From positions 2,317,284 through 2,381,283 of the forward strand of contig OZ244145.1 in the NCBI GenBank assembly GCA_965216245.1: a stretch of 64,000 bases of DNA. The letters are read 5' to 3'. How positions within the stretch are numbered: the stretch's first letter is position 1; each line of letters starts with the position of its first letter. The DNA comes from Chloroflexota bacterium (GTDB lineage Bacteria; Chloroflexota; UBA11872; VXOZ01). The notes beneath the pieces are model-generated. The model was given only the letters and a program-made list of their open reading frames with translations, made no database searches and was not told the DNA's origin. The position numbers and the translations under genes are program-made. This document shows, in pieces, positions 8,410 through 43,817 of the stretch.

Positions 8410-8565
8410 TCCAAGTAAACAAAACTCTACATTCGTCAGGACAAGCTTGGTCGGCTACGGGAGGGCCGACCTCGGAGGGCCGTCATTCCTGTAAGTGTTG
8501 ACTAATTCGTTGACAGATTTCGCTGTTTGATTCCCTTGCCAAGATCTAGAGTACCCCCGTCTCCG

Positions 8566-9576
8566 TCATTCCCGCGAAAGCGGGAAGGTGGATTCACATT
8601 TCAAGTGCAACGTTTGTTTGAGGAATACTTCTGCTGGGGTTTGATAGTCAAGGCACTTGCGCGGGGTGTGATTGTAGGCTTGGATAAGTTGCGCAAAGCG
8701 CTCTGCGGACATCTCCGCCAGGTCGGTCTTGCGCGGCAGCACGCGCCGCATGCGTCCGATGGCGTTCTCAATGCCTCCTTTCTGCCAGGGGGCGTGGGTA
8801 TCGCAGAAGAAGGTCTGGATGCCCAAGTCATGGAGATGGTAATGGCGCGCGAACTCGGTGCCGTTGTCGAAGGTGACGGTCTGTCGCCACGCTTCAGGCA
8901 AGACCGCGAGCAGATCGTACATGGTGCTGGCGATGGGGTCTGCCGCCTTGCCGGGCTGGCGCGCAGCGATGAGCAAGCGCGAGTGGCGCTCGTGCAGGGC
9001 GAGCACCGCGTGGCCGCCTCTCCCAAAGAGCATCAGGTCAGCCTCCCAGTGGCCGGGGGTTTGGCGGTCGGCCGCCGCCTGGGGACGTTCCGCCAGTGGA
9101 CGGCGCTTGGCAATGAAGGAGGCCGGACTGCGCCCACTGCGCCGATGGGGTCGCCGTCTCGTCTTGCCTCGCGGCAGGTAGTGCCGCCAACTATAGTCCT
9201 TGGTGCGCGCCACCTGTCCGTATATGAAACGATAGATGGTCTCGTGGGAGATGACCGGTCCACCGGCATCCCGCGCCATGTGTCCTGCCACCTGCTCCGG
9301 CGACCAGCCGCATTGCAAGTACTCCAGCACGGTCTTGCGCAACGCAGCATCCCGTTCCAACTTGCCGCCAACCCAGCGCCGCGCCCACGCCTGTTCGTGG
9401 GCATACCCCGCTTGGTAGCCCTGCGTACGAGACCCATTGCGTTTCACCTCCCGCATAATGGTCGATGGCGCGCGATCCAGAGCTGCAGCAATTTGCCGGT
9501 ACGACTGTCCCGCGGTGTGAAGCCGGGCCAGTTCACACCGCTCTTCAATGGAAAGTTGACGATAGTATGTTCCCAT
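8566..9576 (-). CDS. IS30 family transposase
   Basis: N-terminal HTH (IAAALDRAPSTIMREVKRN), WSPEQ, ISHETIYR. DDE motifs GHWEAD, TFDNGTEF, WQKGGIEN. Confidence 0.97.
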   Translation of the reverse strand: MGTYYRQLSIEERCELARLHTAGQSYRQIAAALDRAPSTIMREVKRNGSRTQGYQAGYAHEQAWARRWVGGKLERDAALRKTVLEYLQCGWSPEQVAGHMARDAGGPVISHETIYRFIYGQVARTKDYSWRHYLPRGKTRRRPHRRSGRSPASFIAKRRPLAERPQAAADRQTPGHWEADLMLFGRGGHAVLALHERHSRLLIAARQPGKAADPIASTMYDLLAVLPEAWRQTVTFDNGTEFARHYHLHDLGIQTFFCDTHAPWQKGGIENAIGRMRRVLPRKTDLAEMSAERFAQLIQAYNHTPRKCLDYQTPAEVFLKQTLHLKCESTFPLSRE

Positions 9577-9620
9577 GGCAACACCTTAGCATGGTGTTGC
9601 ACTTCGTTTGTGAGTCTAGC
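8587..9620 (-). mobile_element. IS30 family insertion sequence
   Basis: Imperfect 25-bp IRs GGTGGATTCACATTTCAAGTGCAAC and GCTAGACTCACAAACGAAGTGCAAC. GAA duplication at 8584-8586 and 9621-9623. Confidence 0.9.
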
Positions 9621-9926
9621 GAATCCATCTTCTCTGCGTGCCCTGGACTCCGGCGGAAGCCGGAGTGACGACCCTAAGGGCGAATTCTTCCCTCGTAAAT
9701 GGCCAGTGCCGTCTAACACATTCGTACCTATACGCCTCCCTGTTGGCCTTCTCTGCCCATTCTAGTGCCAATTCTGTCAACGAATTACCTGACACATACA
9801 ATTCCAGCGCAAGCCGGAATCCATCTTCGTGTAGGGTAGAGACCTGCTCCGCCCAGTGCGCAAGGATGGCTATACCTAGGAGTGAGGATTTAACAGCCAG
9901 GGCAATTGACAGCGCTGTGATAGCGG

Positions 9927-42877: not shown

Positions 42878-42965
42878 TGGTGCCGAGGACCGGAGTCGAA
42901 CCGGCACGAGCGTTTAAGCTCCTGGGAGTTTAAGTCCCATGCGTCTTCCATTTCGCCACCTCGGC
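42878..42965 (-). tRNA. tRNA-Leu (anticodon TAA)
   Basis: GCCGAGG acceptor stem, anticodon arm TGGGA-CTTAAAC-TCCCA, long variable arm, GGTTCGACTCC T-loop, encoded CCA. Confidence 0.97.
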
Positions 42966-43143
42966 TTGATGGACGCACTCTTTACTGCGGGCGAAGACGC
43001 CTCACTCCCAACCAGGGGACGCAGGTCCTTGACTATCTTTCCACATTATATGTTGCTCCGTATGCGCCCTGCAACCAGGGCAGGTGTTTTATGGCGAGTC
43101 GGCCACCTGGTTACAAAGGTTAAGTGCTGCACTCTGTCATTCC

Positions 43144-43385
43144 TGTAAGTGTCAGGCAATTCGTTGACAGATCTTCAATAAAGAGAAGATAAGCGACGCG
43201 TCGTGCATGCCTTGTACACATGTCATTCCGAACGGAGCGCAGCGCAGAGAGGAATCTAGAGTGCTGAGCCTATTGGACTTGTTGCAACATGGACTCCAGA
43301 TTCCTCTCTTCGCTCGGAATGACATAATCGGTCAACACTGCCTGGTGGAAAGCGAATTCTGTCAACGAATTACTCAACACTTACA
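43144..43385. mobile_element. Non-autonomous TGT...ACA element (MITE, copy 2, 242 bp)
   Basis: Same terminal IRs as 8490-9800 in the opposite orientation. ATTCC duplication at 43139-43143 and 43386-43390. Internal class B REP pair at 43222-43324. Confidence 0.88.
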
Positions 43386-43817
43386 ATTCCGAACGAAGCG
43401 AGGAATCTAGAGTTGCCAAGCGAAAAGCGCAACGCCTGATCAGGTAATTTCTAACTCCCGTAGACTGTTTGCGACGAAAGGTGATAGGCGCTGTGGCGCT
43501 TGTACTGCCCGCGTTCATGCTTGCTTGTGAGGCAGGCGCAATCGAGAGTGCCATGCGGGGTAGTAGCGAGGTGGTGAAGGCTCTCTTGGGGCTAGCTCTT
43601 CGTGGGAGTGATGGAAAGCGGGAGCGCGCTAAAGCCGCGCCATCCAGAGCGGGGGACAAGCCCCCGCGCTACGAGGATTATCGCTCTTCAGTTCACTGCG
43701 ACGGTGGCAGCCACTGCGATAAACACAGTAAAGCAGATTCTAGGTTGTGCGCCCTAGATTCCTCGCTGTGCCTGCAATGACTAGAGACGTCAACTAATTC
43801 AAAACGACCGAATCGCG

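Follow-up and report, generated by a model that had tools for sequence, protein, structure and literature searches.

The element at positions 43144-43385 of the window analyzed here (copy 2) is very probably a MITE that shares with a 1.06-kb IS481-like IS nothing but terminal inverted repeats of ~28-33 nt, that was targeted to the head of a REP hairpin and moved in trans, and that has been orphaned in this genome. The window is the 64,000-nt stretch G000:C1:2317284-2381283, part of a 3.695-Mb genome available as a single contig with 58% G+C, and it contains a second, related element (copy 1). The interpretation put forward here draws entirely on sequence comparison.

Anatomy of the two copies in the window

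Direct reading delimits copy 2 as a 242-bp element, with no ORF of its own function, bounded by ~28-nt inverted ends (TGTAAGTGT...AATTCGTTGACAGA). Its termini read TGTAAGTG...CACTTACA, the element starting with TGTAAGTGT and finishing with ACACTTACA. The insertion splits a REP hairpin directly 3′ of its 8-nt head, GTCATTCC (43136-43143, + strand), and it is flanked by a 5-bp duplication, ATTCC, whose left copy (43139-43143) makes up the last 5 nt of the head and whose right copy (43386-43390) opens the segment containing the remainder of the interrupted REP (43386-43412, + strand, by direct reading). The target is a class B REP, the class with a "GGAATCT" tail. The inverted repeats of copy 2 match each other at 24 of 28 positions, and they can be told apart by a block reading GTCAGG at one end and GTTGAG/GTTGAC at the other. 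The GTCAGG-type end (43144-43171, + strand) is the counterpart of the left, transposase-proximal end of the full-length IS described below, and the GTTGAG/GTTGAC-type end (43358-43385, − strand) that of its right end. Upon reverse complementation, the right end of copy 2 matches the left end of copy 1 at 33 of 35 nt, versus 28 of 35 for the other pair of ends, and the two copies have their ends arranged in reverse order with respect to the REP head. Within the window, the 14-nt core of these ends, AATTCGTTGACAGA, is found four times against an expectation of 0.24, and none of 100 shuffles reaches that count.

The interior of copy 2 holds a forward class B REP (43222-43256, + strand, by direct reading) and an inverted one (43299-43323, − strand), which together constitute a REPIN-like doublet. 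Copy 1 also carries an inverted REP pair as cargo, and in both window copies the class of the cargo is that of the struck REP. The earlier note on this stretch had claimed the inverted 33/35 correspondence between the ends, the insertion of both copies at the same position of GTCATTCC with a 5-bp duplication in REPs of different class, and the agreement between cargo and struck REP. The comparison reproduces the first of these claims, and direct reading confirms the other two, with class A struck by copy 1 and class B by copy 2. Relative to its orthologue in genome G006 (locus L087), copy 2 presents a 13-nt block difference in the 3′ part of the forward cargo REP (43240-43256), and REPs throughout the genome exist both as short forms and as longer ones, which have an additional small hairpin in front of the GGAAT arm. 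Taken together, the 13-nt block and the short and long REP forms suggest modular turnover or conversion between REPs.

Copy 2 lies in a variable intergenic region, 179 bp from a tRNA-Leu(taa) gene (42878-42965, − strand). Orthologous filled sites are present in G004 and G006, at 95% identity. No empty orthologous site for copy 2 was found among the congeners; outside G004 and G006, the match stops within ~380 nt of the query, ~60 nt short of the MITE. The spacer beside the tRNA gene (42966-43817) differs among congeners (loci L089-L095), being occupied by a single REP in some and by a class A doublet together with a solo end, or by a further MITE, in others, and it looks like a hot spot for such elements.

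Copy 1 (8490-9800) is a composite of a MITE and a nested IS30-family element. It occupies a class A REP, with a "GGAATCCATC" tail, whose head GTCATTCC lies at 8482-8489 (+ strand), and the ATTCC duplication flanks it at 8485-8489 and 9801-9805. Its 1311 bp comprise the 1034 bp of the nested IS and ~277 bp of a subfamily III MITE with a class A cargo doublet. The nested IS (8587-9620, − strand) sits inside the 3′ arm of a cargo REP of the MITE, bears its own inverted repeats, is flanked by a 3-bp GAA duplication (8584-8586 and 9621-9623) and encodes a 336-aa transposase (8566-9576, − strand) scoring 235.9 bits against the IS30-family model NF033563, well above the cut-off of 80. The transposase ORF runs beyond the IS, and its stop codon is supplied by the flanking REP.

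Three genomes form a series at the copy 1 locus. The orthologous REP in G015 has no MITE (and an IS30 of its own), the MITE is present but free of the IS30 in G004, and the genome analyzed here has both; the ATTCC target-site duplication and this filled/empty polymorphism are those of a MITE. In G004 the 1034 bp are precisely absent, with two BLAST segments that abut with a 3-nt overlap, and the MITE proper of copy 1 is therefore ~277 bp long. The "unrelated interiors" that the earlier note attributed to the two copies are thus largely an artefact of the nested IS30, most of the dissimilar interior being a later insertion.

The IS30-family element is itself REP-specific. The genome contains 22 full-length copies, 20 of which occupy one and the same point in the 3′ arm of class A REPs, with a 3-bp GAA duplication, one a GTCACTCC-variant REP and one a site outside any REP; three of the 22 sit in REPs borne by MITEs. 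Nesting is also observed between MITEs. At positions 1338487-1339073 of the genome, a subfamily I MITE follows GTCATTCC in a REP that a subfamily II MITE carries as cargo, and removal of the inner element together with one copy of the duplication leaves 318 bp that are colinear, at 88% identity, with another subfamily II copy. Cargo REPs are real targets, because both a sister MITE and the REP-specific IS30-family element have in turn landed in them. Since the MITEs carry their own target, insertions become nested, and copy 1 is accordingly an IS30 in a MITE in a REP.

The MITE family and its IS481-like partner

Searching the genome with a profile of the ends yielded 74 ends (E ≤ 0.05), which form 29 pairs and 16 solo ends. 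Paired elements span 242-319 bp, with the exception of three that contain a nested IS30 (1311, 1311 and 1329 bp) and that account for all three end pairs spaced ~1.3 kb in the genome. The flank of the paired elements reproduces GTCATTCC exactly in 20 cases, with one mismatch in four, with two in two and with three in one, and the remaining two pairs are shifted by 1 nt. A good GTCATTCC head is missing from five of the 29 pairs if the two shifted ones are counted. In the 24 pairs whose head has at most one mismatch, the two copies of the duplication are identical in 13, differ at one position in five and differ at two or more positions in six. Imperfect heads and duplications fit the age of the copies as an explanation, without constituting proof of it. 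Either end may face the head, with 14 pairs in one orientation and 10 in the other. When the 74 ends are considered individually, 32 adjoin GTCATTCC (with at most one mismatch) and 27 adjoin the REP-body side (..GGAAT), whereas the corresponding frequencies at random positions are 55 and 1538 per 100,000. The census supports the description, in the earlier note, of a sequence-specific, non-autonomous element aimed at REPs, with 24 of 29 pairs located at GTCATTCC with at most one mismatch; the REP cargo that was looked for genome-wide alongside this target preference is also found, as a REP doublet in every subfamily.

Three or four subfamilies can be distinguished, linked only by their ends and by having a REP doublet at their center. 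A class B doublet is found in subfamilies I and Ib (242-286 bp), which include copy 2, a member of subfamily I; subfamily II (274-319 bp) carries a class A doublet, as does subfamily III, made up of copy 1 and its twin. Identity within subfamily I ranges from 72 to 99.6%, with a median of 85% over 45 pairwise comparisons, and the single pair at 99.6% may reflect either a recent loss of the partner or gene conversion. The elements are small and non-coding, and the sole transposase found inside any copy is that of the nested IS30, which has its own ends. Outside the window, at G000:C1:2421666-2423635, two degenerate, inverted MITE-type ends located 1.97 kb apart bracket a 406-aa ORF that has no transposase match in the rve search; the arrangement could correspond either to two remnants or to a captured gene.

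An IS with the same two distinguishable ends as the MITEs is present in the sister genome G005. This IS is 1061 bp long and contains one 333-aa ORF, which ends inside the right inverted repeat and has no IS3-type frameshift; several end pairs in G005 lie exactly 1020 bp apart. The IS has TGT...ACA termini and generates a 5-bp duplication, and termini of this type with a short duplication are typical of the IS481 family. The best NCBIfam match of the transposase is to IS481 (NF033577), at 206 bits (E 8e-61) with a cut-off of 224, and the IS3 model reaches 81.7 bits; Pfam matches are to rve_3, rve and rve_2. The earlier note had guessed at an IS481-like or Tn7-like element on the basis of the termini. 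The IS481 likeness holds, with a score under the family cut-off, and nothing Tn7-like was seen. Relatives of the transposase in a large protein collection are mostly 323 aa long, and no IS name appears among the 120 listed homologues, two of which have a source name and carry generic names only. A scan of species-representative genomes found 184 relatives, with 79 loci kept, and the hosts of these loci are all Chloroflexota/Dehalococcoidia MAGs, except for one Nitrospirales and one Nitrospinota MAG.

The end motif is present in all 16 congeneric Dehalococcoidia genomes, and a search of 24 genomes from other families gave a single occurrence, with one mismatch. The partner transposase was detected in six of the 16 congeners, with 15 copies in G001, 11 in G005, five in G003, one each in G015 and G008, and one with stops in G010. 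It was found neither in the genome analyzed here nor in the other 10 congeners, which include G007 with its 109 end motifs. In this genome, a tblastn search with the partner transposase returned only 11 matches, at 27-28% identity and all to a different, 1266-bp IS, and the rve search likewise returned only this different IS481-like element. The transposase is no longer in this genome, and the MITE copies here are therefore orphans. The search for an autonomous partner between identical inverted repeats, advised in the earlier note, thus draws a blank in this genome, by both rve and tblastn searches, and finds its object in the 1061-bp IS of six congeners.

Similarity between the MITEs and the IS is limited to the terminal 28-33 nt. 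Comparison of the MITE interiors with 77 IS copies revealed no likeness past this point, the single 86-nt match being due to a neighboring MITE beside the IS of locus L024. The possibility that the MITE interiors are remnants of the IS is ruled out by this restriction of similarity to the termini, and the MITEs are thus not simple deletion derivatives of the IS. Among the more distant IS hosts (G041-G043), only full-length end spacings were found.

These observations are best accommodated by a mechanism in which the one 323/333-aa DDE (rve-fold) transposase that the IS encodes would bind two slightly different ends, TGTAAGTGTCAGGTAATTCGTTGACAGA and TGTAAGTGTTGACTAATTCGTTGACAGA, and capture the REP hairpin head GTCATTCC as its target. 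Joining with a 5-bp stagger would then lead to duplication of ATTCC, in either orientation of the element. The chemistry would presumably be copy-out/paste-in, the mode of transposition of IS3/IS481 relatives. The MITEs would have been moved in trans by this protein, with the full-length IS surviving in some sister species. The REP doublet between the ends may have originated through capture, later REP invasion or filler DNA.

Target choice, REP cargo and alternative explanations

Target choice by the full-length IS was assessed on 77 of the 79 loci, one of the remaining two being too short and the other having no recognizable ends. The GTCATTCC head is exact in 53 of the 77 copies, which come from several MAGs, and has one mismatch in 15 (68 in total). 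An exact 5-bp duplication is present in 65 copies, and 62 combine a good head with an exact duplication. Both orientations relative to the head occur (35 versus 33). Where the host REP has a variant head, the duplication varies alike (ATTCC, ATCCC, GTTCC, ATTCT), and the position of the joint remains unchanged. At six loci (L011, L016, L017, L047, L059 and L076) the flanks of the IS form no duplication, and L016 and L017 present homopolymer C/G runs at the joint; such cases could reflect either recombination among copies of the IS or assembly noise in long-read MAGs.

REP context seems to count beyond the octamer for the full-length IS, albeit on modest numbers. Among distinct clean IS sites, 30 of 33 fit the pattern GTCATTCC-N5-35-GGAAT, against genome backgrounds of 0.38-0.66, and two of the three misfits are REPs with a point change. 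Taken genome by genome, the pattern is found at 6/6, 10/10, 3/3 and 11/14 sites, against backgrounds of 0.66, 0.65, 0.59 and 0.38 (p = 0.086, 0.014, 0.21 and 0.0027, respectively). In the genome analyzed here, 15 of 24 MITE targets keep the REP tail, which is close to the background of free octamers (191/323), and the case for a preference extending beyond the octamer consequently comes from full-length copies of the IS in other genomes. The part of the REP that is read by the protein may extend past the head.

The GTCATTCC octamer occurs 387 times in the genome, compared to 102 expected occurrences. Free instances number 323, those inside paired MITEs 41 and those interrupted by MITEs 23. A GGAATC-type 3′ arm is present within 75 nt of 230 instances, comprising 191 free ones and 39 inside MITEs. 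REPs with this head are short, abundant and extragenic imperfect palindromes. No RAYT for GTCATTCC REPs was found, the genome containing two Y1_Tnp matches of which neither is flanked by such REPs. One is an intact-looking, 174-aa Y1/RAYT-like gene (L002:1297-1821, + strand) with repeated CCGGTAGCGCAGG-type hairpins on both sides; the other is a Y1 pseudogene with one TAG stop (L001, ~1519-1857, − strand), located between GTAG-type REPs. A copy of the GTAG-type REP is also present in the window, at ~43650-43673.

One alternative is that the MITE is a dedicated vehicle for REP doublets, with a cargo class matching that of the REP entered, for instance through copying or conversion from the target. 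The two window copies are concordant in this respect, every MITE subfamily carries a REP doublet, and neither Y1 gene is associated with GTCATTCC REPs. By-eye inspection of five stand-alone class B doublets with a MITE-type spacer identified a degenerate MITE end or flank in four, which makes these four decayed MITEs. Against this, the claim in the earlier note that cargo class tracks target class does not survive examination of the 15 copies, out of 29, with assignable classes. Class B cargo lies in class A targets five times and in class B targets four times, and class A cargo lies in class A targets four times and in class B targets twice, so that only eight of 15 copies are concordant (Fisher p = 1.0); cargo is constant within each MITE subfamily, and the concordance of the two window copies is due to chance. 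Class A doublets also stand alone, with 11 matches of at least 70 nt outside paired MITEs and without MITE flanks, only 41 of the 387 octamers are inside paired MITEs, and the full-length IS shares the target site of the MITEs without carrying, in so far as it was read, any REP cargo. We therefore regard a dedicated, target-matched vehicle as improbable. The notion, also from the earlier note, of a vehicle dispersing REP doublets retains its value for class B, with four decayed MITEs among the five stand-alone doublets inspected, but not for class A, which stands alone at many sites.

Mobilization of the MITEs by the resident 1266-bp IS481-like element, rather than by the 1061-bp IS of the sister genomes, appears very improbable. 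This element encodes a 398-aa transposase, is present in 11 apparently intact copies with 98-100% identity, and shares with the MITEs both TGT...ACA ends with 5-bp duplications and a preference for palindromic repeats. Its ends (TGTATAGACCGGGGACATAGG...), however, have only TGTA in common with those of the MITEs, it targets another palindrome (CCCTCTCC/GGAGAGGG), the identity of its transposase to that of the true partner amounts to 27-28%, and an IS with exactly the MITE ends exists elsewhere. Slimmer still are the chances that insertion is untargeted, with random landing and purifying selection sparing only the copies in harmless REPs. REPs do provide intergenic "safe havens", and old copies dominate in this genome (median identity of 85% in subfamily I), but selection has no means of confining the joint to a single phosphodiester, and 62 of the 77 IS copies combine head and exact duplication at the same position. 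The excess of MITE ends at the head over random positions (32 of 74, against 55 per 100,000) and the use of the same site by young, near-identical IS copies in G005 and G001 also speak against this explanation. Separately from its bearing on mobilization, the resident IS, whose 11 copies lie outside the window (e.g. at 2617722-2618986 and 1539895-1541159 of G000:C1), has ends of the form TGTATAG...TGTACA, and most of these copies are found in CCCTCTCC ... GGAGAGGG palindromes. Together with the IS30-type element and the MITE/IS481-type element, it brings to at least three the number of IS types that target short palindromic repeats in this genome.

Within the preferred reading of an orphaned, REP-targeted MITE moved in trans, a further and tentative possibility, which we consider rather unlikely, is that the MITE brings along the landing site of its transposase, in the form of the REP doublet, as cargo. 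Each transposition would then seed two targets, giving rise to a self-reinforcing loop between element and safe haven, and the cargo REP might help to attract the transposase to the MITE. The spread of class B doublets, at least, would be due mainly to the IS481-type MITE and not to a Y1 transposase, and this would amount to a second, DDE-driven route of REP dispersal.

Relation to known systems

The IS481-type clade of uncultured Dehalococcoidia/Chloroflexota constitutes a new family and a new host group for REP targeting, and the presence of ends in 16 of 16 congeners, versus a partner transposase in six of 16, makes its MITEs a case of widespread orphan elements. REP variants with a constant joint provide a natural data set on how an rve transposase reads a hairpin-type target, and the family accounts for many of the repeat-rich intergenic regions in these genomes, which is of use for their annotation. 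The literature searched yielded no IS481-family or MITE element targeting REPs, and IS481 is not named in the available portion of PMC1525189.

In its overall organization, the partner resembles the IS481 family (NF033577), with a single-ORF rve/DDE transposase of ~320-330 aa, a length of ~1.06 kb, TGT...ACA termini, a 5-bp duplication and an ORF that ends in the right inverted repeat. It differs in its score of 206 against the cut-off of 224 and in its strict target at the REP hairpin head. REP-specific insertion has been described for IS1397/ISKpn1 and ISPsy8, of the IS3 family, for which target choice is attributed to the transposase itself (PMC1525189, PMC3184786, in the portions available). 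These elements resemble the one reported here in having DDE/rve transposases related to IS481 and in inserting into REP palindromes, but they belong to the IS3 family, have two ORFs with a frameshift and reside in Proteobacteria, and the available portions of the same sources (PMC1525189, PMC3184786) mention no REP-doublet MITEs. The accessible text of PMC1525189 also reports insertion into REPs for members of the IS4, IS256 and IS5 families. According to the available parts of PMC1525189 and PMC12288879, the IS110-family elements IS621, ISPpu9, ISPpu10 and ISPa11 target REPs with high fidelity, with several copies per genome, all in REPs. As far as these sources extend, IS110-family targeters employ DEDD recombinases of an unrelated kind and lack terminal inverted repeats, whereas the MITE described here has 28-nt inverted repeats and a 5-bp duplication.

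With respect to its cargo, the MITE is reminiscent of REPINs, described in the accessible part of PMC3116915 as REP doublets mobilized by RAYT. The cargo is also an inverted REP doublet, and class A doublets occur alone too. Relative to REPINs as presented in that part, the mobility signals of the MITE are DDE-type inverted repeats and not REPs, and the Y1/RAYT-like genes of this genome lie beside other REP families. A parallel for an orphan family is provided by Nezha/ISNpu3, MITEs that have only the terminal repeats and the duplication in common with their IS and whose partner may be absent from the genome harboring the MITE (PMC3184786, in the portion available). The two systems, judged on that portion, share a non-autonomous nature, IS-type terminal repeats and a partner that may be absent from the genome, but the family described here has in addition a strict REP target, that target as its cargo and repeated nesting. 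The combination of a REP-targeting, IS481-type clade with orphan MITEs that carry their own target introduces no new mechanism and extends the known theme of REP-specific IS.
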